NCBI GenBank assembly: GCA_964397315.1
Contig: CAYNHV010000014.1
Span: forward strand, 1-34,395
DNA from: an uncultured Methanosarcinales archaeon
GTDB taxonomy: Archaea > Nanobdellota > Nanobdellia > Woesearchaeales > UBA12501
Reading direction: 5' to 3'
Length of the DNA: 34,395 nucleotides
The translations under genes were made by a program, and so were the position numbers. Shown here one piece after another: positions 4,449 to 34,299 of the stretch. How positions within the stretch are numbered: the first letter of the stretch is position 1; the number at the start of each line of letters is the position of its first letter. The notes under the pieces were generated by a model that was not told the origin of the DNA, made no database searches, and was given only the letters and a program-made list of their open reading frames with translations.

Positions 4449-4467
4449 AATGATGCTTGACTTGAAA

Positions 4468-10534: not shown

Positions 10535-10550
10535 TCAAGCCATGAGCACC

Positions 10551-10566: not shown

Positions 10567-10621
10567 TATGTGGGTTAAAAACAGCCAATCGCAGCTACAT
10601 ATGCCAAAAACCGGTGAATGC

Positions 10622-16258: not shown

Positions 16259-16300
16259 CAACCCGGAAGCATCCGCCAATAAACCAGACAGTGTATTAAT

Positions 16301-19300: not shown

Positions 19301-19594
19301 GAAAAAAAGGAAGAAACATCCCTGGAAAAAGCATCAGAAGGGGATGCTGAGCAGAGGAAAGCTCCTGCCGCGCCAAAACCCACAAGCACTTTTGAGGAGC
19401 TTGAAAGCCTGGGCAGAGGCGGGGAAAAAGAGGAATCCCCTCCAGAGCAGGCCAGACCCGCAGAAAAAGAGGGAGAGGATGTTTTCAGCAGGCTGGGGGA
19501 GATACCAGAAAAGCAGGACAATGTTTATGACAAGCTCAGGGATTACATCAGGCCCTCATCCAAGAGCAAAAAAGGCAACAAGGGAAACAAGTGA
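16301..19594 (+). CDS. Single-pass membrane surface protein: Ig-like domains, three E(T/S)xVDCGG Cys repeats, TM helix, long charged C-terminal tail
   Basis: N-terminal signal peptide; QDLAGN and AVNNVGL Ig/FN3 motifs; TM ISTILIILGVLMVAGGSGYLIY at ~18750-18815; E/K/R-rich tail. Confidence 0.88.
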   Translation: MVLKKRLILIAVSLFLILLSMSGLNAQDREEESLNLTILSKATPDIQVEFQEDVEVVKATMYGMYGDMIENNEEYLREFMESEDTKYIQSMRLVEIAVNAEATENVVHVIPVNPMFNGYYILELQVQDLAGNEATHYGYFDLFVTETDIAIIEPRLGVSDKTFDNLTIRTTRGGAPEETRCKIGVEDPGYNFESPSLVPFDPFEWGSRHSISNVFSRFNIGSAGHVYILCRDRSLNRVNQKRFPLQTDGNNPVIKSFTFIPKKVVEYPEFSDEIFVRLNVTANEPVICRYTQDKDASYEEMTNFDSFNEWDPDTYSKENIQRHELPSAEKAAYNFYVQCEDMAGWKSGRKPGTLEVDLSAGLGIEVLRPRRYTANDTISMILRTNKRSECSLKGEGLEEQTIMTASPDRKQHSYSLGTLEEGSYTYDIRCQSSAAGAIQEQAKSYTFTIDQSEPETPSINGTLVTCYNNKFSFEKPLQLSSEDPESGISHFLVQLKNSTGILINWTRTGSSLKEVEGDDIQLKNGSSYSFLVKAVNNVGLESTAEVASIDYDPGHDICLEKNPPIVKIEENKSKGVTKLKFTCRDESGCDNSSFYYGTAGSEENCTAGSTLQPPFTSEVRETSYVCYLAYDTIGNNATGGKLIEVEYADACNNLRKDGDETGVDCGGSCPPCEAGSKCRENSDCSSNYCENGTCATPTCNDSVINGPLNDVESDVDCGGHCSELGLRCSLNQSCFVNDDCESGFCTPDGACAISTCNDTYKGPEETGVDCGGVCAAEGKLCGIGSGCHNNSDCISGNCLAGTCESPVEMDEGIEFPISTILIILGVLMVAGGSGYLIYKRASSAGAVAAAPGAAGPARPEAQPSRRLSPAEQEKERARQAEQERRRKAMEEQRRKQAEERKKRGEEARKKLEMINRRKIEEREKLFKAFGEGKETEEKAKESGKAAARPEEEKEEKQEKAPGKEGWMSLSALKNKLSPAKKEEKAEGKEAGAPQEKAQAEEKKEETSLEKASEGDAEQRKAPAAPKPTSTFEELESLGRGGEKEESPPEQARPAEKEGEDVFSRLGEIPEKQDNVYDKLRDYIRPSSKSKKGNKGNK

Positions 19595-20694
19595 TGCTAA
19601 TGAGCGCTTCAGCCAGAAAAAAAAGAGTGAAGGATATCTCAGGAAAAAAAGGTGTTGTTGAGGTGCAGTTCAACTGGATATTCATACTCATAGCCGGGGC
19701 CCTCATCCTGGTATTCTTCATAATGATAGTAAACAAGCAGAAAAGCGTGTCAGACAAGAAGCTCTCTGTGGAGATACTGAACTCAATGGACAGGATAATG
19801 TCAGGCCAGAAGACCGCGCAGAACAGGCAGGACGTGATTGACATGTACGAGATAAGATTATCCTACTTATGCGGAGGTTGCGACTGTGAGTTCTCCCTGG
19901 AGGGCATGTCAAAGAGCAAGGGCAATCTTATAGTCTTTGCTCCATCCAGCATGAAAAGCGACAGGCTCCTTACGTGGACGCAGAGCTGGAGCATGCCTTT
20001 CAGGGCAACAAACATGATCTACATGAGCATACCAGAGATAAAATACTACTTCATAGAGCCCCCTGACAGGATTGAGAGGGACTTCATAAGCAACATGCCC
20101 GCTAATGTCACCTATGAGGTTGTGAAGGATGATGACGAGCATGAGATAAAGGACATGGATGATATAGAATATGGCGGGGAGCAGATGATAAGGCTTGTGT
20201 TCTTTGAAAACCCTTCAATGCCTGAAGGGCTGAGGAATGTGGAGGACAGCCTTGTCACAGCCCTTTACATAGACGGCACAGGAGGAAACTGGCAGAACGG
20301 CAAAGCAATGCTCAAGTTCTACAAAAAGGATGGAAGCAGCTTTGCTCCTGACAAGGGAGAGTGGGACTCTAATGATTATCCTGTGCTGGGAGCTGAGTCA
20401 GCATACGGGGCAGTCTACACAGACAGCTTCCAGGCATTCAAGTGCAACATGATTGACGCTGTCAGGAGGCTGGAAATGGTTTCCAGAGTGTATGAAAAGA
20501 GGTCAGAAAAGCTCAGCAATGCTGTCATAGACACTCCTCTCGCATACTGCAGTGTCTATTATGCCACAAACTATTTTGACGGATTTAATGTTGCTCCTGC
20601 CTCTCAAGAAGCAGGGCAGCTTTACAGCTCAATAAACACCCTGGCCACATTCAATGAGGGAGCAGTGATCCAGTCCTGCCCCAGAATATACTAA
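19591..20694 (+). CDS. Pilin-like protein, class III signal peptide
   Basis: GKKG-VVEVQFNWIFILIAGALILVFFIMI; GTGA overlap with the previous stop (exact start uncertain). Confidence 0.87.
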   Translation: MMLMSASARKKRVKDISGKKGVVEVQFNWIFILIAGALILVFFIMIVNKQKSVSDKKLSVEILNSMDRIMSGQKTAQNRQDVIDMYEIRLSYLCGGCDCEFSLEGMSKSKGNLIVFAPSSMKSDRLLTWTQSWSMPFRATNMIYMSIPEIKYYFIEPPDRIERDFISNMPANVTYEVVKDDDEHEIKDMDDIEYGGEQMIRLVFFENPSMPEGLRNVEDSLVTALYIDGTGGNWQNGKAMLKFYKKDGSSFAPDKGEWDSNDYPVLGAESAYGAVYTDSFQAFKCNMIDAVRRLEMVSRVYEKRSEKLSNAVIDTPLAYCSVYYATNYFDGFNVAPASQEAGQLYSSINTLATFNEGAVIQSCPRIY

Positions 20695-20701
20695 ACAGGG
20701 G

Positions 20702-21217
20702 ATGGCTCGCATGATTTCAAGAAAGGCCCAGGTAAGGATGATGGAGACAGTGATGATACTTGTCATCTTCTTCATAATTGTTGTTCTGGGGTTCATGTTC
20801 TATTCAAGAATGCAGGAGAGCACAATGAAAGAGCTGAGAAGGGAGAGGTTTGAGGAGGAAGCCATAGCCATATCCCAGAACATACTCTACCTGCCAGAGC
20901 TTGCCTGCACTGAAAAGAATGTTATGGTTGACATCTGCTTTGACATTCACAAGCTTGAGGCATTCTCTGAGATTGTGGTTCCTGAGAACAGGCAGGCATT
21001 CCTGTTCTACCAGAAGGACCTTGGGGAGAGCAGGATAACTGTCAAGAAGATATTCCCTCCTGGCCAGGAGGATAAGTGGGTCATATATGACAACCCTCCT
21101 GTGAATGCAGAGGAGATTAGCTCAATAAACACAAGCATACCAGTATCCCTCAAGAATCCTGTGAAAAGATACAACCAGTACTCTGTGGGGGTTCTTACAG
21201 TGGAGGTGTTCGGTTGA
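20702..21217 (+). CDS. Pilin-like protein, class III signal peptide
   Basis: SRKAQ-VRMMETVMILVIFFIIVVLGFMFY. Confidence 0.9.
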   Translation: MARMISRKAQVRMMETVMILVIFFIIVVLGFMFYSRMQESTMKELRRERFEEEAIAISQNILYLPELACTEKNVMVDICFDIHKLEAFSEIVVPENRQAFLFYQKDLGESRITVKKIFPPGQEDKWVIYDNPPVNAEEISSINTSIPVSLKNPVKRYNQYSVGVLTVEVFG

Positions 21218-21765
21218 TGGCCCTCAACAGATTATGTGGAAAGACAAAAGGAAGAAAGGCCCAGCTTGAGATGATAGGCATAGCCATAGTTGTCGTGCTT
21301 GTTGTGATGGGCTTCCTCTTCATAATGGCAGCAACCATAAAAGAGCCGTCAAGCGCCCAGGCAGGATTTGTAAGGGCCCACATAGCCCAGGATGTTCTCA
21401 ACACAATGAGCATCTCAGATGCTGACTGCTACGGGCTTGACATGACAGAGCTCTTGAAGGCCTGCGCAGAGGGAAAAAATGTAAAATGCGGGGGGCCCTG
21501 CCAGATATTCAATGATTCGCTGAAGATAATAATGGAGTCCACGCTTGAGGAGCAGAGGCTGCCATACAGGCTCAGAGCCTACAAGTTCAACCCCCCCAAC
21601 GAGCCCAAAGATGCTCTTGGAGGCATTTACATGGAGTACCATGGCTGCAACGAGACAAGCCTTACAAGAGGATACTACCAGATAAAAGAGAGGCCGGGCA
21701 TACTGGTGATACCTGTCAAGGGAGGTGATGCCAAGGTAATGCTTGAGATATGCTCAAGGCCATGA
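21214..21765 (+). CDS. Pilin-like protein, class III signal peptide
   Basis: GRKAQ-LEMIGIAIVVVLVVMGFLF; GGAGGTG RBS at ~21202; start TTG21214 or ATG21217. Confidence 0.9.
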   Translation: MMALNRLCGKTKGRKAQLEMIGIAIVVVLVVMGFLFIMAATIKEPSSAQAGFVRAHIAQDVLNTMSISDADCYGLDMTELLKACAEGKNVKCGGPCQIFNDSLKIIMESTLEEQRLPYRLRAYKFNPPNEPKDALGGIYMEYHGCNETSLTRGYYQIKERPGILVIPVKGGDAKVMLEICSRP

Positions 21766-22250: not shown

Positions 22251-22312
22251 TAAACCAAAATCCTGCTGGAAGGCTGTGGAATGCCCAGAACACCAGCAAC
22301 GCCTGAAGCCAC

Positions 22313-22327
22313 CGAAACTTTTATATA
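22313..22327 (+). promoter_or_regulatory. BRE/TATA promoter of the second pilin block
   Basis: CGAAACTTTTATATA; strong RBS GAGGTGA at 22377-22383. Confidence 0.7.
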
Positions 22328-22389
22328 GCGCAGTATAATAAAGGCTTTTAAGATGCGTGTTTTCCTTTAATCAAACGAGGTGAAAAACA

Positions 22390-22671
22390 ATGAAAAAAGG
22401 CGACCTTTCTCTCAATCTTATAATAGTTGCAGCCATACTCATGATAGTGTTTGTCGTGATTGTGGTCATATTCTCAGGCAGGATGGGGATGTTCAGGAGC
22501 TCAATAGACAAGTGCGAGTCCTATAAGGGAGTTTGCTCAAAGACAGGCTGCACAGGTGCTTATGAGATAGAGAAGCCCGAATATGACTGCGATCTTGACG
22601 GCGACGGCAAGTATAACGAAGGTCAGCAAATAGACGGTGTCTGCTGCATAACCGTAAGCCAAAATAAATAA
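22390..22671 (+). CDS. Small pilin (candidate major pilin), disulfide-rich head
   Basis: MKKG-DLSLNLIIVAAILMIVFVVIVVIFSG; 6 Cys including a terminal CC; DLDGDG Ca-binding-like motif. Confidence 0.9.
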   Translation: MKKGDLSLNLIIVAAILMIVFVVIVVIFSGRMGMFRSSIDKCESYKGVCSKTGCTGAYEIEKPEYDCDLDGDGKYNEGQQIDGVCCITVSQNK

Positions 22672-22690
22672 TCTTTAATTTCTTTTTATG
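22672..22690 (+). terminator. Possible oligo-T archaeal terminator
   Basis: TCTTTAATTTCTTTTTATG immediately after the stop, on an otherwise purine-rich strand. Confidence 0.4.
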
Positions 22691-22706
22691 ATATTAGCAG
22701 GTAAAG

Positions 22707-23705
22707 ATGGTTTCCAAAACCTTTAAGTCAAGAAAAGGCATGGCTGCAACATTGAAAAACCTTTTGATGGCTCTTGTAGTCCTTGTAGTCCTTATCTCAT
22801 TAGTGGCCTACTTCTCATCAAACTTCAGGAGGTCAATCGGCTGCGAGGGAGCGGCGGACATGATAAGCTCCACAGGAGCCCACTGCAATCCAGGAAGCAG
22901 CTGTCCAGAGGGAAGTGAGAGGATGTCCAACACCATTCTTGCAGTGGTTTCAGGAGGCTGCCCAAAAGAGTATGTCTGCTGCAGCGGAGAGAAGCCAGAG
23001 GACCTTCCAGAGCCTGGAGAGGGTAGTATTGAGATGGAGTACAAGAAAGGGAATGAACCCTCTGAAGATATTATTGCAAAGTCCTCAATAACTGTCAGCA
23101 CAGGAACAAGCGTTGATTTCACCTTCAGGGGAGAGGGTGATGCTGAGAGGTGCAGCGCTGAAATAACTCTGCCTGACGGAAGCAGGGACAGGAAGAAGTC
23201 GCCTGACACTAGCTGCACAAGCGATGTCAGTTTCTCCCACACCTTCAACAGCCCGGGAAAGCACAAGATAACTGTAACAGGTTATGATGATAACAGCGAG
23301 CCCGTGGCATCCTACTATGCCTATGTTGTCGCAATAGGCGAAGAAAAGGAGAGCGAGGAGGATATAGAGGAGGCAAGCATGGAGATAGTGCTGTATTATA
23401 AAAACAGGTTATATGAGAGCAAACAGATAGCTCTGGCCCAAGGAAGCATAAATGATGTGGGGCCGCTGAACCAGGACAAGGCTGATCCTGCCATTGATGA
23501 CACCATATATTACAGCCTCTTCTGCACCAAATCCTGCGTGTTTTACTTTAATGGCCAGGAAAAAGCCAGTGTGAGCTCAGGCTCAAAAGAGGGCACAATA
23601 ACAATGGAGGAGGGCATGAACCTCATCAGAATAGATGCAACTGAGGGAGACAAGTCAATAAGCTATCAGCTCTACTACACCGGCTCAGAGCAGGGCCAGA
23701 CATGA
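22707..23705 (+). CDS. Pilin-like protein with Cys-rich pilin head plus PKD/Ig-like domains
   Basis: SRKG-MAATLKNLLMALVVLVVLISLVAYF; FSHTFNSPGKHKITVTGYD; EEGMNLIRIDA. Confidence 0.88.
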   Translation: MVSKTFKSRKGMAATLKNLLMALVVLVVLISLVAYFSSNFRRSIGCEGAADMISSTGAHCNPGSSCPEGSERMSNTILAVVSGGCPKEYVCCSGEKPEDLPEPGEGSIEMEYKKGNEPSEDIIAKSSITVSTGTSVDFTFRGEGDAERCSAEITLPDGSRDRKKSPDTSCTSDVSFSHTFNSPGKHKITVTGYDDNSEPVASYYAYVVAIGEEKESEEDIEEASMEIVLYYKNRLYESKQIALAQGSINDVGPLNQDKADPAIDDTIYYSLFCTKSCVFYFNGQEKASVSSGSKEGTITMEEGMNLIRIDATEGDKSISYQLYYTGSEQGQT

Positions 23706-23710
23706 GAAGG

Positions 23711-23725
23711 AAAAACATTTAAAAA
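23711..23725 (+). promoter_or_regulatory. Putative BRE/TATA promoter
   Basis: AAAAACATTTAAAAA upstream of 23768. Confidence 0.45.
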
Positions 23726-23767
23726 CATGAAGGCAATAATCCAATAAAAATTCAATAAAAAGGTGGC

Positions 23768-24052
23768 ATGATGAGCTCAAGAAAGGGAATAAGCCTGTCA
23801 ATGAACGCGATAATAATTGCCGCTCTTGCCCTCATAGTGCTTGTTGTGCTTGTGCTCATATTCACGGGCCAGGTGGGAAAGACAAGAGAGGGCCTGAACA
23901 GGACATCATCAACATACTCAGGAAACACCTGCGAAATTCCAGGCACTGCAAGACAGTGCAGGTTTCCCAGCCAGTGCCAGAGCAGGGGAGGCATAAATTA
24001 TGGTACAGACTTCAGCGACTGCGTGATGAACGAAGTGTGCTGCTCTGAATAG
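23768..24052 (+). CDS. Small pilin, paralogue of 22390-22671
   Basis: SSRKG-ISLSMNAIIIAALALIVLVVLVLIFTG; 6 Cys with a terminal CC. Confidence 0.9.
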   Translation: MMSSRKGISLSMNAIIIAALALIVLVVLVLIFTGQVGKTREGLNRTSSTYSGNTCEIPGTARQCRFPSQCQSRGGINYGTDFSDCVMNEVCCSE

Positions 24053-24100
24053 GCAGGAAAACAGGCAGTATTTGCTGGCGGAAGAGCCCCTGCATTCTTC

Positions 24101-24115
24101 AAAAGATTTATAAAT
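24101..24115 (+). promoter_or_regulatory. BRE/TATA promoter, likely leaderless transcript
   Basis: AAAAGATTTATAAAT about 22 nt before ATG24137. Confidence 0.6.
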
Positions 24116-24136
24116 AAATATTGAGTAATTGCCTCC

Positions 24137-24262
24137 ATGCCAGGGACGCTGAAAAAAGAAGGTGGAGTTGAAGCCAGGATAGTCCTTATAATAATCGCGA
24201 TAATTCTTGTGATGTCATTCCTTATATACACAGTGCTCAAGGTGAGGGATATGCTTGGTTAA
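24137..24262 (+). CDS. 41-aa mini-pilin (not in the ORF track)
   Basis: Hand translation: MPGTLKKEG-GVEARIVLIIIAIILVMSFLIYTVLKVRDMLG*; preceded by a TATA box; overlaps the next start. Confidence 0.75.
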   Translation: MPGTLKKEGGVEARIVLIIIAIILVMSFLIYTVLKVRDMLG

Positions 24263-25049
24263 GGGAAAAAAGGGGGGAATGCAGTATGATCTTGTCAAGA
24301 TAGTGTCTGTATTGATAGCTTCCATTGTAATCCTTGGTGTTGGCCAGACCCTGAGAGCAGCCTCAAAGGATGTTTATGAGCTCAGGGCGTGCCATGACGC
24401 GCTTGTATTCCAGCAAAAGGCAGCAGAAAAGCTCGGAGGAGATGTGGCCCAGACAGCAAGGCCGTGGCCTGCATCATGCCAGACAGTGGAGAAGACAATA
24501 GAGACAGGAGACAGGGAGGAGGCAATGAGGCAGATAGCCCAGTATATGATGAGATGCTGGTGGAGCCTTGGGGGAGGAGGAAAGCAGGGGATTGACCCTT
24601 TTGCAAAGAATCTCTTTATAGGAGATGAGAAATGCTTCAACTGCTTCCTAATCAAGACAGAGAATGTTGATATTAATGCAGAAGACTTCAACAACTGGCT
24701 CATGACAACCCACATAAACTATGACGAGAACAGGCTTACATACTGGAATTACCTCAAGGGCCTTTCAAGTGATGAGGAGGGGGCCTCTAGAAGAGCCCCC
24801 ATAGTGAGTAACGACATAAAACCAGGAGAGTATTATTCTGTTGCTTATGTTGACCAGCAGTCCTCACTATATGATGATATTCAGGAAGCGCTTTGTTCAG
24901 AAGACTCCCCTATTACCCCTGCATGGTGTGGTGTAGATAAAGCGCTTAAAGAAGCCGCGGAGAGGTCAGGAGGAACAGTTACAGTAAAGGATTACCTCTT
25001 TCTCATTGACTGGAACAAAGCCCAGGAAAAATGCATAACAGGAGGTTAA
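24255..25049 (+). CDS. Pilin-like protein, class III signal peptide
   Basis: TTG start after GGTGAGGG; MVKGKKG-GMQYDLVKIVSVLIASIVILG; MMRCWW and CFNC motifs. Confidence 0.85.
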   Translation: MVKGKKGGMQYDLVKIVSVLIASIVILGVGQTLRAASKDVYELRACHDALVFQQKAAEKLGGDVAQTARPWPASCQTVEKTIETGDREEAMRQIAQYMMRCWWSLGGGGKQGIDPFAKNLFIGDEKCFNCFLIKTENVDINAEDFNNWLMTTHINYDENRLTYWNYLKGLSSDEEGASRRAPIVSNDIKPGEYYSVAYVDQQSSLYDDIQEALCSEDSPITPAWCGVDKALKEAAERSGGTVTVKDYLFLIDWNKAQEKCITGG

Positions 25050-25054
25050 GGATC

Positions 25055-25231
25055 ATGAAAAAGGCGGGATCAAAGGGAATGTCCAACATGAGCATGTGGT
25101 TTATTGTTGCTGTCACTCTTGCGCTGCTTGCATTCTTTGCATTTGTGATGCTCACCCAGACAGGAAGGCAGGTGGCCCTGAATATGATCGACACAACAAA
25201 ATCAGCAGTCACGCCGGGTGCGCTTTCATGA
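25055..25231 (+). CDS. 58-aa mini-pilin
   Basis: GGAGGT RBS at 25041; MKKAGSKG-MSNMSMWFIVAVTLALLAFFAFVML. Confidence 0.8.
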   Translation: MKKAGSKGMSNMSMWFIVAVTLALLAFFAFVMLTQTGRQVALNMIDTTKSAVTPGALS

Positions 25232-26043
25232 TATCAGGAACAAACTCAAGAAAGGGAATGGCATTTTTTGAGCTGGCAGGGATAATACTTGCGCTGGTTG
25301 CTTTTATGCTCCTGGCAGGCATCTACTTTGGAAACCAGTTTCCAAGGGTGAGAGAGATGGTGACAGGCACAGAAAAGACATTCAACGAAAGCATCGGAAC
25401 TGAAACCCAGCAAAGTGAGGTTGCGCTTTCAGAAGAGGCAATAACCCTAAAAGGCTCTTTCCAGAGCATGGTCACAAGCATAGAATCCTGCGCTCAAGGC
25501 AGCAGTAAGAAGTGCGTCTGCGACCTGCACATTCCTGAGTTCAACTCCAAGTATGTCATGGCATTCAGGGCATCCTCCTCAGGAAAGGGCTTCACTGCAT
25601 ACGCGTTTGAAGGCAGGGCAGAAAAACTCAATTACCCAAACAAGATGATAATCTCATCACATTATTTCAAGAATCTCAGGTTCTGCACATCAGAGGACCT
25701 CCTGGGTTATGATGTGGGAGAGCTGGAGAAAGCAGGTTTTGTGGAGGAGGAGATGTCCAACCTCTACAGGGGGAATGGAAAGCTTGCGTTCCATCACCTG
25801 CCTGCAGGAATGTTAAGGAGCGATGGTTTTTATGTTCTCGGCTCCAGCAGGAATCCTGAGAAAGAGCCTCAAGACAAGGAGAGATTCAGCCTCTACAAGG
25901 TTGATGATGAGCATGTTTGCTTTTTCATAGGAAGGCAGGGCAATGAGTACAGGTGGGCGGGCCATACTTTCTATCTTGAATCAAGCAGAAACAGGCTAAG
26001 AAAGAGGATATACGAGCTTGAGCAGAAGGTGGGAAAATGCTAG
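25228..26043 (+). CDS. Pilin-like protein with canonical G|MxxxE type IV motif
   Basis: ATGA overlap; MISGTNSRKG-MAFFELAGIILALVAFMLLAGIYF (Glu at +5). Confidence 0.88.
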   Translation: MISGTNSRKGMAFFELAGIILALVAFMLLAGIYFGNQFPRVREMVTGTEKTFNESIGTETQQSEVALSEEAITLKGSFQSMVTSIESCAQGSSKKCVCDLHIPEFNSKYVMAFRASSSGKGFTAYAFEGRAEKLNYPNKMIISSHYFKNLRFCTSEDLLGYDVGELEKAGFVEEEMSNLYRGNGKLAFHHLPAGMLRSDGFYVLGSSRNPEKEPQDKERFSLYKVDDEHVCFFIGRQGNEYRWAGHTFYLESSRNRLRKRIYELEQKVGKC

Positions 26044-26074
26044 GCTGCATAAAAGGATATGGGGTGAGGGTGTC

Positions 26075-26416
26075 ATGAACAAAAAAGGAATGAGCATGGT
26101 GCTTGTAGGAGCGATCCTTGCAATAGTTATGATAATACTTGGAGTTGCATATTATGAAACAGCTTATGCAGGAGTGGAGAAAAGCACAGACAAAGTGATG
26201 GATCAGCAGGGTGATTTTGACAATGACGGAATAATAAACGCCTTTGACAGGTGCTGCCCGACAGCATGCGAGGTGCTGTCAGGTTACAGGGACACTGTGG
26301 ACACAGACCCTTCCAGCAGGAGGTACGGCTGCGCTGAATACCAGGAGCCAACTTCCTGCACAGCAGAGCAGTGCAACATAAAGCCTGAGTTCATAGGAGA
26401 GAAACCCAATTCATAA
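26075..26416 (+). CDS. Small pilin-like protein with a thrombospondin type 3-like Ca-binding motif
   Basis: GGGGTGAGG RBS; MNKKG-MSMVLVGAILAIVMIILG; GDFDNDGIINAFDRC. Confidence 0.85.
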   Translation: MNKKGMSMVLVGAILAIVMIILGVAYYETAYAGVEKSTDKVMDQQGDFDNDGIINAFDRCCPTACEVLSGYRDTVDTDPSSRRYGCAEYQEPTSCTAEQCNIKPEFIGEKPNS

Positions 26417-26455
26417 AAGACAGGGGAGAATAAAAAGAGGGAGATGTAAGTCTTT

Positions 26456-27676
26456 ATGGCCAGAATGCGATTGAACAGAAAAGCAAATCTCATGCTCTAT
26501 ACGCTTATAGGGCTTATACTGGTTGGGATAACAGTGTTCGCGATAATAAACGGAGTTGCCAAGGGAATGAACCTTTTCGGAAAGGACCTCACAGCATCCT
26601 CATTCCTGAGCCTGAACAGCAGCATCGCAAGGGTTGCAGGAAAACAGCCAGGAACAGTTGAGTCAGTGCTGATAAGGCTGGATGAGAAAAGCTCTTTAAT
26701 GGCATACCCGAGAGGCTCCCATGAGATTGTAGTTCCAAGGTGGGGTGATGATTACCGTTTCCCAAGGCCTGAGGAATGCCCTGCTGACAAAGCCTGCCTC
26801 TGCGCGTGCAGGAGGGTTGATTACGGGGAGGGAGGATATGCATGCCAGGAGGAGACAAGAGAAGGAAAGCAGAAAAGCAGCCTGATATGCACAAGCTATG
26901 ATAAGATTGACTTTGTGGACTACATGGAAGAGGAGGAGTTCGGAAAGCAGGACTGGAACTCTTACGAGCTCAATGGAGGCTTCATAATGGGAAGGTTCAG
27001 GATTATGGGGCTTGAAAGCAGAACCTTCAATGTGCCTGACAGGTCTGTCCTGAGAGTGCACAAGATATCAGACAGCCCCACAAGGCTCATAGGGCTTACA
27101 TTCAGGCAGGAACTTCCCCAGGAGGCTACTGACAGGGCTGTAAATGCTGACAGGGCCCAGGCAGTATTCAGCCTTGCAGAGAGAAATCTCAGGGAGGGTG
27201 ATTATGAATCAGCAATGAGATACCTTAACAACATAATAGATGATCCCACTCTTACGACCGCGCTTGAGACAGCAGACCCTCACACCCACAACATGGCATA
27301 CTATTACAGGGCAATAATCCTTGAGAGGCAGGAAAAGCATGAGGAGGCAAAACAGGAGTTTGAGGAGATAAAGGGGAAGTTCGCGGGCAGCCCTGATGAG
27401 AGGAACAGGATGGAATCCCAGGCTGAAATGCACATCTGCAACCTCCTGCAAAACACAGAAGGAGAGCTGACAAACTTCTATGCTGTTTCTGAGGATAATT
27501 ATGAATGCCTGAAGTGCAGCAAGATACGCAACTGCCGTGATTACAGGACTCTTGACATAGTGACAACCCAGGGAGAGCCGCTGTACAAGATAAAATGCGA
27601 GGATGACTTCTGCAATATCGGCTGTGAGTGGGATAGTGGTGCAAATGAATGCACCATGAGAGAGATAATCGCATAA
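26456..27676 (+). CDS. Pilin-like protein with a TPR-like helical region and Cys-rich tail
   Basis: NRKA-NLMLYTLIGLILVGITVFAII; AERNLREGDYESAMRYL...AYYYRAIILERQEKHEEAKQEFEEI. Confidence 0.85.
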   Translation: MARMRLNRKANLMLYTLIGLILVGITVFAIINGVAKGMNLFGKDLTASSFLSLNSSIARVAGKQPGTVESVLIRLDEKSSLMAYPRGSHEIVVPRWGDDYRFPRPEECPADKACLCACRRVDYGEGGYACQEETREGKQKSSLICTSYDKIDFVDYMEEEEFGKQDWNSYELNGGFIMGRFRIMGLESRTFNVPDRSVLRVHKISDSPTRLIGLTFRQELPQEATDRAVNADRAQAVFSLAERNLREGDYESAMRYLNNIIDDPTLTTALETADPHTHNMAYYYRAIILERQEKHEEAKQEFEEIKGKFAGSPDERNRMESQAEMHICNLLQNTEGELTNFYAVSEDNYECLKCSKIRNCRDYRTLDIVTTQGEPLYKIKCEDDFCNIGCEWDSGANECTMREIIA

Positions 27677-27738
27677 TGCGAACACACACTGCAGGGCATG
27701 AATGCTCTCAAGTCTCAAAATGCGCTGAAAAGCCACCA

Positions 27739-27752
27739 CAAACCTTATAAAT
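27739..27752 (+). promoter_or_regulatory. BRE/TATA promoter, likely leaderless transcript
   Basis: CAAACCTTATAAAT about 23 nt before ATG27775. Confidence 0.6.
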
Positions 27753-27774
27753 CAAACCCTCATGAAATACCATC

Positions 27775-28791
27775 ATGGGAGCTGCTCTCAAAAAAAGAGG
27801 CAAAAAGGGCACAATCACTATCTACCAGGCATTCCAGCTTCTCTTTGCAGGGATAATAATAATCCTCCTTCTTAACTTCGCCCACAGGGCAGGAACAGGA
27901 GTCCAGTTTGAGAGGGTTTATGTCGCTCATGACATGGCCCTCAACCTCAACGCCCTCTACGCTGTTCCTGGAGATGTCGTGCTTGACCATGACCAGGGCA
28001 TGGCAAGCCCTTACTTCAGCAAGTTCACAGAGCGCATAAACAAGGGCATTGTTGAGGTTTACGGCACAGAGAACACAACATCCAGAACAACATACCTTTA
28101 TGCCCAGTCAAAATCATCTGTAATAGACAAGGAATTCACAAACCCCTCCTACCTCTCATTCATGAGGCAGAACGGAAAGGTTATTGTCAGCGAGACAAAA
28201 ACAGCAACAGCAGGGTCTGCATGCCCCATCATTGACACAAAAGGGGATGTAATGGAGAAGAGGATCATTATTGAGCCTGGCCAGCACGCAGGAAACCCTG
28301 GAAAGAATAGCCAGAACAGGGAGGAATACAAGCTGACAGACAGGATAGCAAGAACCATAAAGCTGCTTTGTGAAGGAAGGGGCTATGAGTGCATAATCCT
28401 GCAGCAGGGCCCCCTGGAGGACAAGATAGCAGAGCTGAGGGACTCATCAGCAGACGTACTGGTGAGCATTCAAATAGGAGATTCAGAAGAGCATGACAAC
28501 CCCCTCCTGGTAAAACACCCTCTTGGCAGGGAGAAGAGCAAGAAACTGGCTTGCATAATATCCAACAATGCTGGAGAAAGCTTTGACAAGATTACAACAG
28601 AGGATGTGGACACGAGCAAGCTGGAGGAGGATAATGAGAGGATTCTTCTCCCATCCACAGAAGAGGGAGGGTTTCCTGCTGTAATGCTGGAGATAGGCAA
28701 TATCAGGAATGCTGATTCCCTAAGCCCCAACAGCATATCAAAAGCTGCATCACTGGTATTGCAGAGCATTGAGGATTATTACAGGGAATAA
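27775..28791 (+). CDS. Pilin-like protein fused to a degenerate N-acetylmuramoyl-L-alanine amidase (Amidase_3-like) domain
   Basis: GKKG-TITIYQAFQLLFAGIIIILLL; RIIIEPGQHAG...EEYKLTDRIARTIK...ADVLVSIQ...PAVMLEIGNIRN follows the Amidase_3 motif order. Confidence 0.8.
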   Translation: MGAALKKRGKKGTITIYQAFQLLFAGIIIILLLNFAHRAGTGVQFERVYVAHDMALNLNALYAVPGDVVLDHDQGMASPYFSKFTERINKGIVEVYGTENTTSRTTYLYAQSKSSVIDKEFTNPSYLSFMRQNGKVIVSETKTATAGSACPIIDTKGDVMEKRIIIEPGQHAGNPGKNSQNREEYKLTDRIARTIKLLCEGRGYECIILQQGPLEDKIAELRDSSADVLVSIQIGDSEEHDNPLLVKHPLGREKSKKLACIISNNAGESFDKITTEDVDTSKLEEDNERILLPSTEEGGFPAVMLEIGNIRNADSLSPNSISKAASLVLQSIEDYYRE

Positions 28792-28808
28792 TAAAAGAAC
28801 ATAACGGA

Positions 28809-29324
28809 ATGGCACGCATGAGAATACCAAGGATATTCAGGTCAAGGAAAGGCCAGGAAGAGGCAGCTATAATCCCCAGCAAGCTGGTCCTGTACATGGT
28901 CCTGGCAGTCATAATCCCGCTCATGGCCCTTGCGCTTGTGCTGATCACCACCCATTACAGGGCCCAGGTTAACTCATACCTTGATGATGTGGAGGACACG
29001 GTTCTTGAGGCAAGATTCCTCAGCTCTCCAGACTGCTTCGCCCGTGTGGACAGCGTAACAGGAAGAGTCTACCCAGGGGTTATTGACCAGAGCAAGTTCA
29101 CCCAGAAAAGGATGGACTACTGCTATGATGTTCCAAAAGATTTTGAGAGGGCATGCTTCAGCATAGACCTAAGGGATATGGAGAAGGAGAAAGTGATAGG
29201 GAGTGTGTCCTCAGAGAACTGGGAACAGTGCAGCAAGAAAAGCATAGAGAGAGAAGGGCATTATGTTGTGCTTGAGGACGGCACCCCTGCAGTGATGTAC
29301 ATCTCCTCACTGGACATGAAGTAG
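28809..29324 (+). CDS. Pilin-like protein
   Basis: SRKGQ-EEAAIIPSKLVLYMVLAVIIPLMALALVLI; RFLSSPDCFA...YPGVIDQSKFT. Confidence 0.87.
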   Translation: MARMRIPRIFRSRKGQEEAAIIPSKLVLYMVLAVIIPLMALALVLITTHYRAQVNSYLDDVEDTVLEARFLSSPDCFARVDSVTGRVYPGVIDQSKFTQKRMDYCYDVPKDFERACFSIDLRDMEKEKVIGSVSSENWEQCSKKSIEREGHYVVLEDGTPAVMYISSLDMK

Positions 29325-29327
29325 GAT

Positions 29328-29915
29328 TTGATAAAACACAGCAGAGACAAGGCAAAAATGAACTGCAAAAAAAGCTCAGGAAAAAGCAAAAGAGCGGCAA
29401 GGGGCAAGAAAGGCCTCTGGCTTCCGTCCATAGTAAACATCCTGCTGCTGCTCCTTGCAGTTTTTGTCTTTATTATCTTCTGGTGGCTGCTGGTAGGGGA
29501 TGAGATAAAAGCAGGCGCAGCAGCAGAGGACACGAGCTTCACGCTTAAGACTGACAGGGAGCTCCTTTCAATACTGAGGACAGAGAGCAGCATTGAGGGA
29601 ATCACCATTGCAGAGCTCATAGAGCTGGCCTATTATGACAATAATAAAGGCGAAGAGTACGCAAAAATCCTGGAGAGGGATGTCAGCGCAACACTTGATG
29701 AGGCCTATGGAGAGGGAAATTACGGCTTTCACGCAAGAAGGATGGAATACGGGCTGGGAAGGGAGAAGGAGCTTGAGGTTGGAAGCATGAGAAGCGAGGA
29801 GAACAAGTTCATCACCATCGGAGGCATGGGGGCTGCAGAGCACGTGGCTCACGCCTTCCTTCCAGGCAGGGACGGCACCATGTTCAGGGTAAGGCTGATG
29901 GTGCGCAAGGAATAG
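29328..29915 (+). CDS. Pilin-like protein
   Basis: GKKG-LWLPSIVNILLLLLAVFVFIIFWWLL; start TTG29328 or ATG29358. Confidence 0.85.
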   Translation: MIKHSRDKAKMNCKKSSGKSKRAARGKKGLWLPSIVNILLLLLAVFVFIIFWWLLVGDEIKAGAAAEDTSFTLKTDRELLSILRTESSIEGITIAELIELAYYDNNKGEEYAKILERDVSATLDEAYGEGNYGFHARRMEYGLGREKELEVGSMRSEENKFITIGGMGAAEHVAHAFLPGRDGTMFRVRLMVRKE

Positions 29916-29940
29916 AGCAGGGGAAACAGGATAAGGGATA

Positions 29941-32900
29941 ATGAGAATGCACGAGCAAGAGACTGGAAAAGGCACGGGCTTGGGAAATGCAAGAAAGGCC
30001 CAGATGACAAGCACCTTGATAATAATAGGCCTTTTCCTAGTGTTCATAGTGTTCGCGGGCTACGCGCTGATTGAGAAAAAGGAGGAGGGAAGGCCCGACT
30101 ACATAGGCCAGAACCAGCTTGCTGTGCTGGAGACAGCGATAAAGGCAGAGAAGTCCCTGCTTTATGTTGATGCGGCTGCGAGAATATCCTCAGAAGAGGC
30201 TATGATTGAGCTTGCAGAGGCAGGGGGAGAGCCATTAAAGGAGTGCGGGGAATACTATGGTTATAATTACTGGCAGAGCATGGCAGAAGGGTTTACAGAA
30301 GACTGCCAGGCTGCTGAAAGCCCAGAGGAGTGCGCAGGAGTGCAGGAATGCTATCCAGGGGACATGACCGCGGGAATGGAGGTTCTGATGAACTCCATCA
30401 TGGGTCCTCTCATAAAGGATTTTTCAGAGAATTCAGAAAAAGAGTTCTCAAGAATAGGCATGCCCACCTATGACATAAAAACAGAAAGCCCCGGACAGGC
30501 AGAGCTCATAGGCATGACAGCCCACTACTTCAACATTCCCATAATAGTTGAGACAGGGGAGGAGGTTGAAACACCTGAGGTATCAGGAGCTCAGAAAAAA
30601 GAGGGGCTTGAATGCTTTTACTGCCATGACGGCAAGGCCCATGTCAGGGATCTTTTTGGTGAGGAGAGATACGAGCAGTGCAGGAACAACGGAAAGTCAT
30701 GCTGCAGGGAGCAGTGCCCTCCAGGCTCATTGTTTGTCTCAAATCTTCCTGAATACAAGAACCAGCACAGGGACTTCCGCGACCTCGGCGCCTGCGGTGG
30801 GCCTGGAAAGACAGTGAGCAGCTCTGGCTGCGGGCCTGTCTCAACCCACATGGCGCTTGAGTCAGTGGGGGTAAGCATGACTGTGGAATCCCTGTTCTGC
30901 GAGGGAGGGGAGAACAGGATATACAAGCCTGGAGGCACCTGGTTCAAGCTTCTTAAGGATGTTGTAAGCGAGCATGTTCCCGGCTCAAAGGCTTACTGGA
31001 AGCTTGACTTTGACAAGATAGCGGAAGAGGTAAGGAAGGGAAATCCTGTGGTTCTGGACATAAAACAGAAAGGGGTGTCAAGAACAAACAGCCTGAACGA
31101 GAGATGCTATGAAACACGGGGGCATTATGTTAACATTGTGGGCGCGTCAGATGATTATCTTGTCGTAAATGACCCGGCCACAGGCTCAAGGTCATGCGAC
31201 AGGGACAGGACAGTGGGGGAGAGGCAGGTATGGTCAAGGGAGTTCGTGAATGACATATCTTATTATGGTGTTGCTGTTAAGAGCGGTGCAGCAGCCCAGC
31301 CTCTGGAGTCAGCCAACATAAATTTTGTAAAGAGCAGCTTTAAAGGCAGGGAGATGTACAAGATAGAGGTGGATCCCTCTTATTTTGATGTTGAAGTTGC
31401 CACTGCAGAAAGGGCGGCAGGTAAAAAGATGTCAGAAACAAGGGAAATCATGAAGGGTGCGGGTGCTGTAGCAGCAATAAACGCGGGATTCTTTGAATCT
31501 GGGGGGGATCATTCCTCCTTCATAATTGAGAACAGCAATGTTGTCTCTGAAAACACTAAGGAATGGATGAATGCTTTTTTTGTTGTGAAAGAGAAGGATG
31601 GTGAGAGGGATTACAGCATAGTGATGGAGGAGAACTTCAACCCTGAAGGAGCTGTTTTTGCTATAGAATCACCCTGTTTTGTCAAAAATCATGAGTATTG
31701 CTTCCCTTGCGACCGGCTTTCAAACAAGAATTATTGCAATGGAAAGAGCAAAAGGTCAGTGCTTGGAATAAAAGATGATGGGACAATTGACCTTATTATT
31801 GTAGAAGGCGCGACAATCCCTGAGCTGGGAGATTACCTGTCAGATAATTATAAAGACGCGATTGGCTTGGATGGAGGGGGCTCTGTGTCGCTGGATTACC
31901 ATTATGGAGGATCAGAACAATCAATAGGGTGGGAGCACAGGCCTGCCTGCGAAAGCAGAGGGATAGAAGGGGAGTGCCAGAGAAGGGTAACAAGCGCGAT
32001 AGTTGTAAAGCCAGGGGGAGAGATAGCTGCTCCGCAAAATACCGCAGAGATAGAGCTTTCAGCCTCAGAAAAGAAAAAAGTGGAGAGAGTAAACCAGTAT
32101 GATAATCTCATAAACAAGTACAGCACAAAGAGAGGAGTAAAGCCCGCTGTCGTCAAGGCCATGATCGCATGGGAGTCAGGAGGCGATCCAGACGCAATCT
32201 CATACACCGGCTGCGTTGGCCTGGGCCAGTTCTGTTATGGCACTGCAGCAGGAGGCACTTATGATGACATATTTGAGAAAGTCACTTCCTGTAACTGCGG
32301 TCCTGGCAAGAGACCGTGCTCTGAATACCATGAGTGCACTCCTGAAAATGATGACAGGTTCAACCCTGAGAAGAACATAGAGGCAACAGCAAAATACCTC
32401 TCCAGGTCATACAAGGCTTATGACGGCAACATATACCTGATTGCAATATCCTACAACGCCGGGCCGGGTGTTGCAAACATAATCAAGGAAAACCTGGACG
32501 GCCAGCCCGGCAATTACGAGAACATAAGGGTCCTGCTTGACGAGGCAGTTCTGGAATATCATAAGGAGAAAAAGATCAAGGAAGTTGACAATCACATGAA
32601 AAAGGTGGCAAGGTACTATGAAGTGTTCGGCGGGGATGCTGAAACGCCTCTTGTCACATCTCACGGAAAGACTTATGTTGTCAGGACAATAGGGGAGTAC
32701 GCTGTTAACCCCTCATTCTCTATTGACCTCCCCCACAACCTGGAAGATTATGAGGTGATTGAGAGCCAGGTGAGGGGTTATGGAGACAGCAAGGGTATCC
32801 TTGGCCTTGCGGCAGAATGTGAAAATGAAGGCAAAGGTTCAGAGGATTGCGTGGCCGAGGCAGTGTCAAAAGTGAATGAAAGGAATGAGATGAAAGACAA

Positions 32901-34299
32901 TAAGCTTAAGATGTTCAACGGCCCCTGCAGTCCAAAAGAGAACCTCTGGAGCGACTTTGTAGAGGACTTCGGAGACTGCATGGAGGTCATGGACGAAAGA
33001 GAGGGAGATTGCTACTGCAGCATAAGCCTTAACCAGTCAGAGCAGTCTGATTCAGAGGGGGGGATTATAATAACAGCTGAAAACAAGGAGGGCATAAGGG
33101 TTTATTCAGAGGAAAACGAGGCTCTCAGCCACACTTTTGCCAGGGAGATAGAGGACAGCACAGAGCTTGAGGCAGAAGGGAGAAACTCCATGTTTTATGT
33201 CATAAATAAGGGAGGCAAGCTTCTGCTGAGAGAGGAGGCTCCAGAGGGCATGGCAGAATGCGGCATGGAAAAGAGGAATTTCAAGTTCTGCGTGAGGTCA
33301 GACAAGAGTCTTCTGCATTATGATGAAAAGAGGGGGGAAACACTAAAAAAGAACATGGAGTACAAGTTCGCTCTTGAGCTCACAGATTCAGTGCCGCCGG
33401 CCCCTGTAAAAGGAGCTGAAGTTCTTGACGCGCCCCTTGGAGAGGAATCCTTTCTCCTGAAGTGGGACAGGAACAAGGAGCAGGACGTGAGCAGGTACAG
33501 GATCTACCTGGCAGAATCAGAACATGATGTGTTCAGGATGGATCTGGGTATGGACGCGATAAAGAAGAGGGTTGAGCTGAAAACCACAGAGGTCATCCTG
33601 GCAGAAGAGGAGGTGGTTGAGCTGGAGCATGATATCTTAACAGACCATTATGGGCTTGCTGATGGAGAGGTGTGCATGAGAACAGCGGCAGGCCGGGAAT
33701 CACCAGGCAGAAACGCCTGCGAATCCGGAAACAACCTGTGCTGCATGAAGGACAAAAGCCAGGGAGTTGTAATAGAAAGCGGAAAGCTGTATCATGTCAA
33801 GACAGATGAGAAGGACTATTACATGTATGTGCTTGAGAACAAGTCCTACACACCAGATTACTCCTCAATGATAAAGGAAGGTGTTCCTTATGACATTGCA
33901 ATAACTGCTGTTGATTATTACGGAAACGAGATAGACAACAAAGGGGAAGGCAGGAAGCTTCCTGTCGTGAGAGAGAAGAAGTCAAAAGACGACCTTCCTC
34001 CAGCAGGTGTTGAGCTCATGGCGCTTGAGCGAGGAGAGGAGGACACCATCTCATTAATAATGCCTGACAGGAATGCTGACGGCTCAGAGCTCGTGGATCT
34101 TGAGGGCCTTAATGTGTATTACAGCCAGGAGGATTTCAGCAGCACACAGGGAATGAGCCCCTTTGCCTCAGGAATAATGCCCTCCTGCTCTGACAGCATA
34201 TGCCTGGTCACGGTCAGCAGCCAGGGGCCGGGTTTCTATGTGGTGTCTGCTGTTGACGAAGCCGGAAATGAGCGTGAGATCATAAACACAATAGCATAA
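29941..34299 (+). CDS. Giant pilin-like multi-hydrolase: class III signal peptide, C39-like peptidase, NAGPA phosphodiester glycosidase, SLT lytic transglycosylase, FN3-like C-terminal domains
   Basis: ARKAQ-MTSTLIIIGLFLVF; SSGCGPVS/GHYV/VNDP; INAGFF/RSVLGI/LDGGGS; AMIAWESGG/GCVGLGQ/SYNAGPG; AVDYYGNE and AVDEAGNE. Confidence 0.88.
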   Translation: MRMHEQETGKGTGLGNARKAQMTSTLIIIGLFLVFIVFAGYALIEKKEEGRPDYIGQNQLAVLETAIKAEKSLLYVDAAARISSEEAMIELAEAGGEPLKECGEYYGYNYWQSMAEGFTEDCQAAESPEECAGVQECYPGDMTAGMEVLMNSIMGPLIKDFSENSEKEFSRIGMPTYDIKTESPGQAELIGMTAHYFNIPIIVETGEEVETPEVSGAQKKEGLECFYCHDGKAHVRDLFGEERYEQCRNNGKSCCREQCPPGSLFVSNLPEYKNQHRDFRDLGACGGPGKTVSSSGCGPVSTHMALESVGVSMTVESLFCEGGENRIYKPGGTWFKLLKDVVSEHVPGSKAYWKLDFDKIAEEVRKGNPVVLDIKQKGVSRTNSLNERCYETRGHYVNIVGASDDYLVVNDPATGSRSCDRDRTVGERQVWSREFVNDISYYGVAVKSGAAAQPLESANINFVKSSFKGREMYKIEVDPSYFDVEVATAERAAGKKMSETREIMKGAGAVAAINAGFFESGGDHSSFIIENSNVVSENTKEWMNAFFVVKEKDGERDYSIVMEENFNPEGAVFAIESPCFVKNHEYCFPCDRLSNKNYCNGKSKRSVLGIKDDGTIDLIIVEGATIPELGDYLSDNYKDAIGLDGGGSVSLDYHYGGSEQSIGWEHRPACESRGIEGECQRRVTSAIVVKPGGEIAAPQNTAEIELSASEKKKVERVNQYDNLINKYSTKRGVKPAVVKAMIAWESGGDPDAISYTGCVGLGQFCYGTAAGGTYDDIFEKVTSCNCGPGKRPCSEYHECTPENDDRFNPEKNIEATAKYLSRSYKAYDGNIYLIAISYNAGPGVANIIKENLDGQPGNYENIRVLLDEAVLEYHKEKKIKEVDNHMKKVARYYEVFGGDAETPLVTSHGKTYVVRTIGEYAVNPSFSIDLPHNLEDYEVIESQVRGYGDSKGILGLAAECENEGKGSEDCVAEAVSKVNERNEMKDNKLKMFNGPCSPKENLWSDFVEDFGDCMEVMDEREGDCYCSISLNQSEQSDSEGGIIITAENKEGIRVYSEENEALSHTFAREIEDSTELEAEGRNSMFYVINKGGKLLLREEAPEGMAECGMEKRNFKFCVRSDKSLLHYDEKRGETLKKNMEYKFALELTDSVPPAPVKGAEVLDAPLGEESFLLKWDRNKEQDVSRYRIYLAESEHDVFRMDLGMDAIKKRVELKTTEVILAEEEVVELEHDILTDHYGLADGEVCMRTAAGRESPGRNACESGNNLCCMKDKSQGVVIESGKLYHVKTDEKDYYMYVLENKSYTPDYSSMIKEGVPYDIAITAVDYYGNEIDNKGEGRKLPVVREKKSKDDLPPAGVELMALERGEEDTISLIMPDRNADGSELVDLEGLNVYYSQEDFSSTQGMSPFASGIMPSCSDSICLVTVSSQGPGFYVVSAVDEAGNEREIINTIA

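Follow-up and report, generated by a model that had tools for sequence, protein, structure and literature searches.

A Predicted Cell-Surface Protein with Three Wall-Hydrolase Domains in a Pilin-Like Gene Cluster of a Woesearchaeota-Type Archaeon

Large proteins with murein transglycosylase domains have been described from Woesearchaeota and Pacearchaeota. In the account of Castelle et al. (2021; PMC8204110), the transglycosylase proteins of family fam00969 reach 3,000 amino acids, and bacterial hosts are proposed with reference to Rinke 2013 and Castelle 2015. Vigneron et al. (2022; PMC9723730) report large GH23 proteins in Woesearchaeota and write of a "vampiristic" lifestyle, and the same idea of attack, together with scavenging of peptidoglycan from dead cells, has been put forward for Pacearchaeota (PMC11537232). 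A protein of this kind is encoded by an open reading frame (ORF) at 29941..34299 on the forward (+) strand of contig CAYNHV010000014.1, the whole of which, 34,395 nucleotides long, is the window analysed here. The protein fits the fam00969-type description in being large and exported, in carrying a murein transglycosylase, and in coming from these lineages, a likeness of description rather than of compared family sequences; with both published sets it shares the archaeal group, the large exported SLT/GH23 chain, and a reading as a means of attachment to, or attack on, bacteria. The novelty implied in an earlier note on this DNA was therefore overstated, since the large transglycosylase proteins and the idea of a bacterial host are both in print. 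The main-text passages on fam00969 and on the GH23 proteins are concerned with the transglycosylase domain alone, and the class-III-like signal, the conserved N-terminal domain, the C39_2 and NAGPA enzymes, the swappable cargo, and the 14-gene cluster described below go unmentioned in them; the supplementary tables may list some of these. Module 98 of Castelle et al., which comprises 51 co-distributed families (PMC8204110), may already contain the cluster genes.

We consider it likely that the window protein is a cell-surface hydrolase whose three enzymes are aimed at bacterial walls, and that it belongs to a Woesearchaeota-type (DPANN) archaeon building no murein. The earlier note had proposed three hydrolase domains in tandem within the ORF, and this holds, far beyond chance. 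The ORF, with its boundaries as first given, encodes 1452 amino acids, and a Pfam scan of the protein returns three matches, each above its curated cut-off: Peptidase_C39_2 (PF13529) at residues 293-413 (E 5.1e-9; 37.3 bits against a cut-off of 24), NAGPA (PF09992) at residues 508-689 (E 1.1e-16; 62 bits against 25; profile positions 2-168 of 169), and SLT (PF01464) at residues 723-844 (E 3.1e-19; 69.1 bits against 21.3). The spans originally assigned to the domains, residues 267-447, 460-692, and 719-847, bracket these matches. As delimited here, the C39_2 domain, a papain-like cysteine peptidase, occupies 30817..31275; the NAGPA phosphodiester glycosidase domain, with its INAGFF and D644-GGG-S648 motifs, 31306..32028; and the SLT (GH23-type) domain 32053..32580. 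These and all features of the window mentioned below lie on the + strand.

The catalytic positions named at the outset are correct. C297 (in GCGP), H395 (GHY), and D411 (NDP) make up the predicted C39_2 triad and are conserved in 14, 14, and 13 of 14 aligned relatives, respectively, the remaining one having Glu in place of D411. The NAGPA motif LDGGGS is present, as claimed, at residues 643-648, where L643, D644, G646, G647, and S648 are kept in at least 90% of 10 NAGPA domains. SLT domains are recognized by the motifs ES, which holds the catalytic Glu, GLxQ, and YNxG. In the window protein these are E745-S746, G760-L-G-Q763, and Y838-N-A-G841; among 99 sequences E745 is kept in 94, S746 in 92, G760 in 98, Q763 in 93, and Y838, N839, and G841 in 84, 82, and 85. 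E745-S746 aligns with the ES motif of E. coli EmtA/MltE, a profile of the family matches MltC (E 4.9e-24), Slt70, MltF, EmtA, and T7 gp16 (E 1.2e-10), and the PHROG matches of the domain are an endolysin, an internal virion protein with an endolysin domain, and a lytic tail protein. As judged from these alignments, the key catalytic residues of all three enzymes are intact and conserved. Between GLGQ and YNAG the SLT domain carries a Cys-rich insertion (window 32290-32360, residues ~784-806), in which C784, C799, D804, and R806 are kept in at least 90% of the 99 sequences; we know of no such insertion in bacterial SLT domains.

Family associations suggest what the other two enzymes may cut. 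According to a 2026 paper on the structure of human NAGPA (PMC13474241), DGGGS is the invariant motif of these enzymes from bacteria to man and holds the catalytic Asp. NAGPA also occurs fused to calcineurin-like phosphoesterases of bacterial surfaces, for which teichoic acids are the predicted substrates (bioRxiv 10.1101/2024.03.27.587046), and Metallophos-NAGPA fusions occur within the family of the window protein as well (P0009, P0015, and P0024). C39_2 is catalogued among the catalytic domains of lysins, where it is restricted to phages of Gram-positive bacteria (PMC8223927). Searches of the PDB by sequence gave no significant match for the C39 and NAGPA segments, a pairwise comparison of NAGPA with the solved NAGPA structure 6pkg reaching only E 0.61, and none for a 94-residue pilin-like protein encoded upstream.

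The window is the entire contig C14 of a genome (G000) of 1.47 Mb that lies in 61 contigs and is 93% complete. The earlier note held that a bacterial host or prey was implied, unless the contig belonged to a bacterium that makes peptidoglycan and remodels its own wall. The ribosomal RNA (rRNA) operon, on contig C8, scores best with archaeal models of both the small and the large subunit. Searches of the genome, at 93% completeness, found neither Mur_ligase_M nor a penicillin-binding protein (PBP) transpeptidase; this makes self-remodelling unlikely and points to a bacterial target, although missing matches at this level of completeness fall short of proof. The inference of a bacterial partner or prey is thus supported, for an archaeal genome with no detected murein synthesis encodes a protein with intact wall-hydrolase motifs. 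SLT has one match in this genome and none in four archaeal control genomes.

It might be objected that C14 was binned wrongly and that the gene is that of a murein-making bacterium acting on its own wall. The contig is a compositional near-outlier, with a GC content of 0.484 against 0.458 and a tetranucleotide correlation (r) of 0.918, the second lowest among 21 contigs of at least 20 kb, and this counts against an archaeal origin; it also lacks a taxonomic marker gene, and one relative of the protein is labelled a KSB1 bacterium. C14 is nevertheless placed in the archaeal lineage because the first gene of the cluster that ends in the hydrolase gene has a homologue in 50 of 52 archaeal genomes of the same order, the only copy found in G000 sits on C14, and the cluster abuts archaeal genes in two distant relatives. 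In these relatives, L008 (11746-14662) and L004 (10049-14920), it is followed by genes for an RPA-like OB-fold protein, a YdjM-like membrane protein, and RadA; C14 itself ends 96 bp past the hydrolase gene, so that the corresponding downstream genes are beyond view. Seven of the eight relatives with named sources are archaeal, six carrying the labels Nanoarchaeia, Nanoarchaeota, or Woesearchaeota and one that of Thermoproteota. On the missing Mur_ligase_M and PBP transpeptidase, the distribution of the first gene, and the archaeal flanking genes, a self-remodelling bacterial contig was rejected, and we give it almost no credence.

The eighth named relative, P0009, is a protein of 1633 amino acids with Metallophos, NAGPA, Glucosaminidase, post-SLT, and C39_2 regions that NCBI labels "candidate division KSB1 bacterium"; the label reflects either cross-domain transfer or a binning error. 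Elsewhere in G000, contig C12 (35,298 bp) is a strong compositional outlier (GC 0.381 against 0.458; tetranucleotide r 0.80) and may be foreign, mobile, or mis-binned.

The manner in which the protein would be held at the surface is suggested by its N-terminus, which reads ...GNARKA|QMTSTLIIIGLFLVFIVFAGYALI. The prepilin-type start with an RKAQ boundary that had been noticed earlier is borne out: a class-III-like (prepilin-type) signal takes up residues 1-20 (29941..30000) and ends in R18-K19-A20, with the inferred cleavage point after A20 and before Q21. In the 81 family members that combine the N-terminal domain with a Met start and an uncharged stretch, the last Lys or Arg is followed by Ala (35), Gly (30), or Ser (11) in 76, and the consensus is N-K-K-[AGS] followed by Q-[IV]-F. 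At the level of the motif, this fixed small boundary residue is as expected for class III (prepilin) cleavage and would be superfluous in a plain signal anchor. The genome encodes a single prepilin peptidase (Peptidase_A24), on contig C8.

Beyond the signal lies a hydrophobic helix at residues 21-47 (30001..30081), which AlphaFold2 models as part of a helix spanning residues 15-47, with block pLDDT values of 95-97 over residues 21-40. It is followed by a conserved N-terminal domain (N-domain), residues 48-212 (30082..30576), which phmmer finds in 93 of 152 relatives and which has the pattern IGxxQ...EKxLxYxDxxAK...GG...CGxYxGY.W...C.P. The AlphaFold2 model of residues 1-215, built from 49 aligned sequences with a mean pLDDT of 76, adds helices at 57-93 and 142-164 and two short strands. 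The nearest ESM Atlas clusters of the N-domain contain hypothetical archaeal proteins only. A Cys-rich module, residues 213-292 (30577..30816), then leads to C39_2; it adjoins the C39 domain directly on the N-terminal side in 12 of 12 relatives, with C225, C228, C247, C254, C255, and C259 kept in at least 90%.

Downstream of the enzymes is a post-SLT module, residues 881-1200 (32581..33540), in which a helical Cys-containing part (~935-1019) precedes beta-sandwich domains; its first half occurs in 58 and its second half in 77 of the 152 relatives, and residues 881-1200 gave no usable match in the ESM Atlas. The chain finishes in FN3-like beta-sandwich domains, residues 1201-1452, which together with the stop codon fill 33541..34299 and include a low-confidence loop at ~1235-1273. 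The AlphaFold2 model of residues 881-1452 has a mean pLDDT of 83, and with Foldseek it matches tandem FnIII structures at E ~1e-8; Pfam fn3 is found in relatives P0002 and L008.

Comparison of residues 1-1200 with 1.84 billion representatives by HMMER gave 1980 proteins at E up to 0.001, of which 260 had E values of 1e-10 or below. The best 152 were taken as the set of relatives, and 121 of them were scanned with Pfam (P0122-P0152 were left out). At least one wall-acting catalytic domain is present in 99 of the 121, a share biased upward by a retrieval query that itself contained wall-hydrolase domains; the other 22 have none or fn3 only. The enzymes comprise SLT, Peptidase_M23, Amidase_2, Amidase_3, NlpC/P60, C39_2, and NAGPA, and further Glucosaminidase, VanY, YkuD, Polysacc_deac_1/2, 3D, and Metallophos, and the combinations Amidase_2-M23-SLT and NlpC/P60-SLT recur. 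Among the best 152 relatives, the trio of C39_2, NAGPA, and SLT is found in the window protein only. Of the 301 genomes sampled from the class, 85 contain SLT; among the 205 of high quality the number is 80. By domain content, the protein belongs to a large DPANN family with a class-III-like signal, the N-domain, swappable wall-hydrolase cargo, and FN3-like tails.

This range of cargo bears on the notion that the target is archaeal, either the producer's own envelope or that of a host walled with pseudomurein. Pseudomurein contains beta-1,3 links that are insensitive to lysozyme-type enzymes, and every cargo family in the relatives (SLT, M23, Amidase_2, Amidase_3, NlpC/P60, VanY, YkuD, Glucosaminidase, and 3D) has bacterial murein or structures attached to it as its substrate. 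A search of the genome for a Mur-type ligase was negative. The hosts of cultivated DPANN are archaea (PMC11291902), and a neighbouring product, that of ORF 27775, has a match, though a non-significant one (E 0.057), to the pseudomurein-binding repeat. On balance an archaeal target is highly improbable.

The hydrolase gene does not stand alone. It closes a run of 14 consecutive ORFs (19591 to 34299), in all of which [KR][KR][GA] directly precedes a hydrophobic stretch. The strict form of the motif is met in 104 ORFs genome-wide, and C14 is the densest contig (0.29/kb against a mean of 0.07). The first gene (19591..20694; 367 amino acids, beginning KKG|VVEVQF...) is conserved, as shown by homologues and synteny, and is followed by two class-III-like genes of 171 and 183 amino acids (RKA|Q...) at 20702..21765, which come after the first gene in relatives too (E 1e-9 to 2e-43; 14 loci). 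Sequence, Pfam, and relatives define seven more such genes at 22390..27676, encoding proteins of 93, 332 (PKD), 94, 264, 315, 132, and 406 amino acids, the last with weak TPR matches. Next come a class-III-like protein of 338 amino acids (27775..28791) and, directly upstream of the hydrolase, two further class-III-like genes of 171 and 195 amino acids (28809..29915), again recognized from sequence and relatives. Curated pilin or class III families were matched by none of the 13 neighbours in NCBIfam (E up to 1), and no pilin family was matched in Pfam (E up to 0.01) by the 11 neighbours searched there (ORFs 22390 and 23768 were left out).

The 338-residue protein, encoded three genes upstream of the hydrolase, has an Amidase_3-like C-terminal half. 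Its residues 164-332, aligned with homologues, match Amidase_3 in hhalign with a probability of 95.7% (E 1.1e-8; 161 columns), the protein matches the PHROG family phrog_435, "endolysin" (E 6e-6), and relatives have homologues at the same position; Pfam gives no match, and a BLASTP comparison with the Amidase_3-bearing relative P0005 was not significant. Because the position of the third zinc ligand, a His, is occupied by Gln (VSIQIG), the domain may bind the wall rather than cut it. Most related clusters contain, in tandem, two or three homologues of the Cys-rich proteins of 93 and 94 amino acids (22390-22671 and 23768-24052), and these two proteins are candidates for the main subunits of a fibre, if a fibre exists.

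Upstream of the cluster the window encodes five giant exported proteins of 974-1896 amino acids (711-19594), with RCC1 repeats, MopE metal-binding motifs, PKD, DUF4215, and Big_13; two of these giant upstream ORFs also start in class-III-like fashion. The one encoded at 16301-19594 combines a Sec-type signal with a membrane helix at the C-terminus and a long tail rich in Lys and Glu; genes for its homologues immediately precede the cluster in G030 (L043, E 2e-38) and in L008. In-gene tandem DNA repeats occur in the genes for the giant surface proteins (2198-2759 and 4582-5477) with periods of 114 and 126 bp, and one 126-bp unit is repeated 1.8 times at 100% identity (4582-4810), which suggests recent repeat expansion.

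The cluster is conserved well beyond this genome. In addition to its presence in the same order, the first gene has homologues in 128 of the 301 genomes of the class, and colinear synteny is seen by BLASTP and phmmer in L008, a Woesearchaeota contig, and in loci from twelve other genomes (in the range L031-L043). An N-domain match is present in 21 same-order genomes; 14 of them have the N-domain gene on the same contig as the first-gene homologue, and in 11 of these 14 it lies 7-12 kb downstream on the same strand, the exceptions being G030, G177, and G286. By an iterated profile, for which drift is possible, 15 of 16 loci have a relative of the 195-residue gene immediately before the terminal gene. 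Indeed, iterated profiles of the small cluster proteins spread over all paralogues through the shared N-terminal helix, and orthology is founded on position and on first-pass phmmer matches; the locus list came from a single pattern of an 8-sequence alignment and numbers 15 loci, not a census. ORFs of 331-365 amino acids come after the terminal gene in five further loci.

What the terminal gene carries differs from lineage to lineage. In nine loci picked solely by N-domain adjacency, the cargo is M23 in three, 3D in one, M23 with SLT in one, and Amidase_2 in one, and in three no enzyme was recognized; one of these three enzyme-less proteins aligns along its entire length with the 3D-bearing protein at 42.5% identity. 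The statement that an SLT protein always closes the cluster was tried and found too strong. From these comparisons, the cluster is a near-universal, mostly single-copy feature of the order, and the conserved element is the cluster with its terminal N-domain slot, the enzymes being cargo that differs between lineages.

The arrangement also bears on the idea of a released bacteriolysin, which after processing would leave the cell and kill bacteria nearby without contact. Killing of bacteria by archaeal peptidoglycan hydrolases has been shown (Strock et al. 2025, PMC12352652), which lends this idea some force. It leaves unexplained, however, the conserved helix, the N-domain, and the linkage to 13 other class-III-like genes, and we think it quite improbable.

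A sequence of events can be proposed for a hydrolase acting from the cell surface. The single prepilin peptidase (A24) of the genome would cut after A20. The hydrophobic helix would then keep the protein in the membrane or let it enter a short fibre of the co-encoded pilin-like proteins, in which the tip would be the most plausible place for a protein of ~160 kDa; assembly would be driven by one of the sets of pilus ATPase and platform genes located on other contigs. Once a bacterium is touched, SLT would cleave the bonds between N-acetylmuramic acid (MurNAc) and N-acetylglucosamine (GlcNAc), the C39_2 peptidase would cleave peptide stems or cross-links, and NAGPA would remove wall polymers linked through GlcNAc-1-phosphate. 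The neighbouring Amidase_3-like protein would bind or trim the wall, and the FN3-like tail would act as a spacer or binding region. The outcome would be a local breach or firm attachment, giving access to a bacterial partner or prey.

It is also conceivable that the enzymes digest peptidoglycan debris from dead cells for amino acids and amino sugars and leave living cells untouched. Peptidoglycan of dead bacteria has been proposed as an amino-acid source for Pacearchaeota (PMC11537232). The DNA was found in three runs of one study labelled microbial mat metagenome, with no RNA run listed as containing it, and a combination that cuts glycan, peptide, and polymer would suit complete digestion. 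Use of 1,6-anhydroMurNAc, the product of lytic transglycosylases, requires AnmK. Neither AnmK nor a NagB-type deaminase was found in the 93%-complete genome, which counts weakly against amino-sugar catabolism as the purpose; amino acids may still be harvested from the peptide stems. The hydrophobic anchor and the conserved pilin-like cluster fit contact better than diffusion, and scavenging therefore seems an unlikely function.

Several observations weigh against the reading of the protein as a surface hydrolase of bacterial walls or against its display on a fibre. The substrates of C39_2 and NAGPA are deduced from family associations alone. The N-domain has no match in Pfam or NCBIfam, pilin families included (E up to 1), and its model none with Foldseek in the PDB or in BFVD (viral) at E up to 0.001; its best VIA Z score, 6.8 with a phage sheath, is of a size commonly seen when a model has no clear match. 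The window and the scanned flanks of relatives yielded no assembly ATPase or platform gene. Among the 27 same-order relatives that have an SLT match, just 4 carry it immediately downstream of the cluster, to be set beside the 11 of 14 for the N-domain gene. Finally, in G030, the closest sampled relative and a member of the same family, the cluster is split into two loci (L043 and L044) 64 kb apart, and the terminal gene is reduced to an N-domain ORF (184 amino acids) and a post-SLT ORF (173 amino acids) with no enzyme; the SLT genes of G030 are located elsewhere.

The description of the product as an archaeal pilin-like protein can thus be kept for its signal motif and not for a pilin family or fold, which Pfam, NCBIfam, and Foldseek do not support. 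The further claim that it is pilus-borne could not be upheld: no pilin family matches, the N-domain has no convincing fold match, and the cluster and scanned flanks lack an assembly ATPase or platform gene. Because that gene is missing from the locus, incorporation into a fibre is one of two readings of the hydrophobic anchor, the other being anchoring in the membrane, and the "pilus-borne drill" is a hypothesis. T2SSE (five matches) and T2SSF (six) are present elsewhere in the genome, on contigs C3, C11, C19, C44, and C4.

A bolder and decidedly doubtful extension may be worth stating. In it, about a dozen pilin-like proteins would form a single-copy fibre or tip complex throughout the Woesearchaeales, the last subunit would be an exchangeable "warhead" slot, and the whole would be a contact-dependent organelle for breaching bacteria. 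The pair of C39_2 and NAGPA would then point to a monoderm partner, of the teichoic-acid type or bearing secondary polymers, because the catalogued lysins with C39_2 all come from phages that infect Gram-positive bacteria. In cluster 2 DPANN, two conserved type IV pilus loci are reported (Hamm et al. 2024, PMC11291902), and a survey of archaeal type 4 filaments describes T4F systems as rare in DPANN (PMC13705601). The words "peptidoglycan" and "transglycosylase" do not occur in the main text of either paper, nor does "hydrolase" in that of PMC13705601. A search of full-text literature, supplementary tables lying outside its scope, found no paper that combines Woesearchaeota, transglycosylase, and pilin.

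The hosts of most Woesearchaeota are unknown, and the open question of a bacterial host for any DPANN archaeon becomes experimentally approachable through this locus. It offers a defined ectodomain with three predicted activities, a processing site with its peptidase, and a conserved cluster that could be tagged or imaged. With exchangeable cargo, the enzymes encoded in a given lineage may reveal what type of wall its bacterial partner has. Should the protein prove to be only a scavenging enzyme, it would still describe the recycling of wall carbon and nitrogen by very abundant tiny archaea.

Several known systems resemble parts of this arrangement. In the modular type IV pilins of Streptococcus sanguinis, a functional module is joined to a pilin-type N-terminus. 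The PilY-like adhesin arCOG03511 of archaeal T4F subsystem 4A/4B (PMC13705601) is a large functional protein that is encoded with pilin genes and presented on or by the fibre, as is proposed here. In contrast to both, the module in the window protein consists of wall hydrolases, the N-domain is not a recognized pilin fold, and the locus has no ATPase or platform gene. The bindosome of Sulfolobus has class III signals on sugar-binding proteins that are assembled with small pilin-like proteins. There, as in the present cluster, such signals mount large non-pilin proteins alongside small pilin-like partners, whereas the cargo in the window is catalytic by prediction, would be aimed at another organism, and comes from a different phylum.

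Local breaching of murein by an SLT domain on a structural or filament-associated protein has its counterpart in phage virion-associated lysins (T7 gp16-type and lytic tail proteins); the window gene, in contrast, is a cellular archaeal one in a chromosomal, vertically conserved locus, and combines three enzymes in one chain. The hydrolases of Gram-positive conjugation, PrgK (LytM, SLT, and CHAP) and TraG of pIP501 (SLT and CHAP), have an N-terminal membrane anchor. They share with the window protein the succession of an anchor and then SLT with a papain-like or metallo-peptidase in one chain, in the setting of a cell-to-cell apparatus, but they open the producer's own wall, and the producer here is predicted to have none. 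The study of Strock et al. (2025; PMC12352652) is close in another respect, in that archaea without murein encode murein hydrolases directed at bacteria, and killing is demonstrated there by experiment; its main text mentions Woesearchaeota only in passing, describes no pilin-like cluster, and does not contain the terms "SLT," "NAGPA," "pilin," or "multi-domain." The general kind of protein is thus published, and what the present locus adds is the C39_2, NAGPA, and SLT cargo, the only one of its composition among the best 152 relatives, the Amidase_3-like neighbour, and a quantified exchangeable slot at the end of the cluster.

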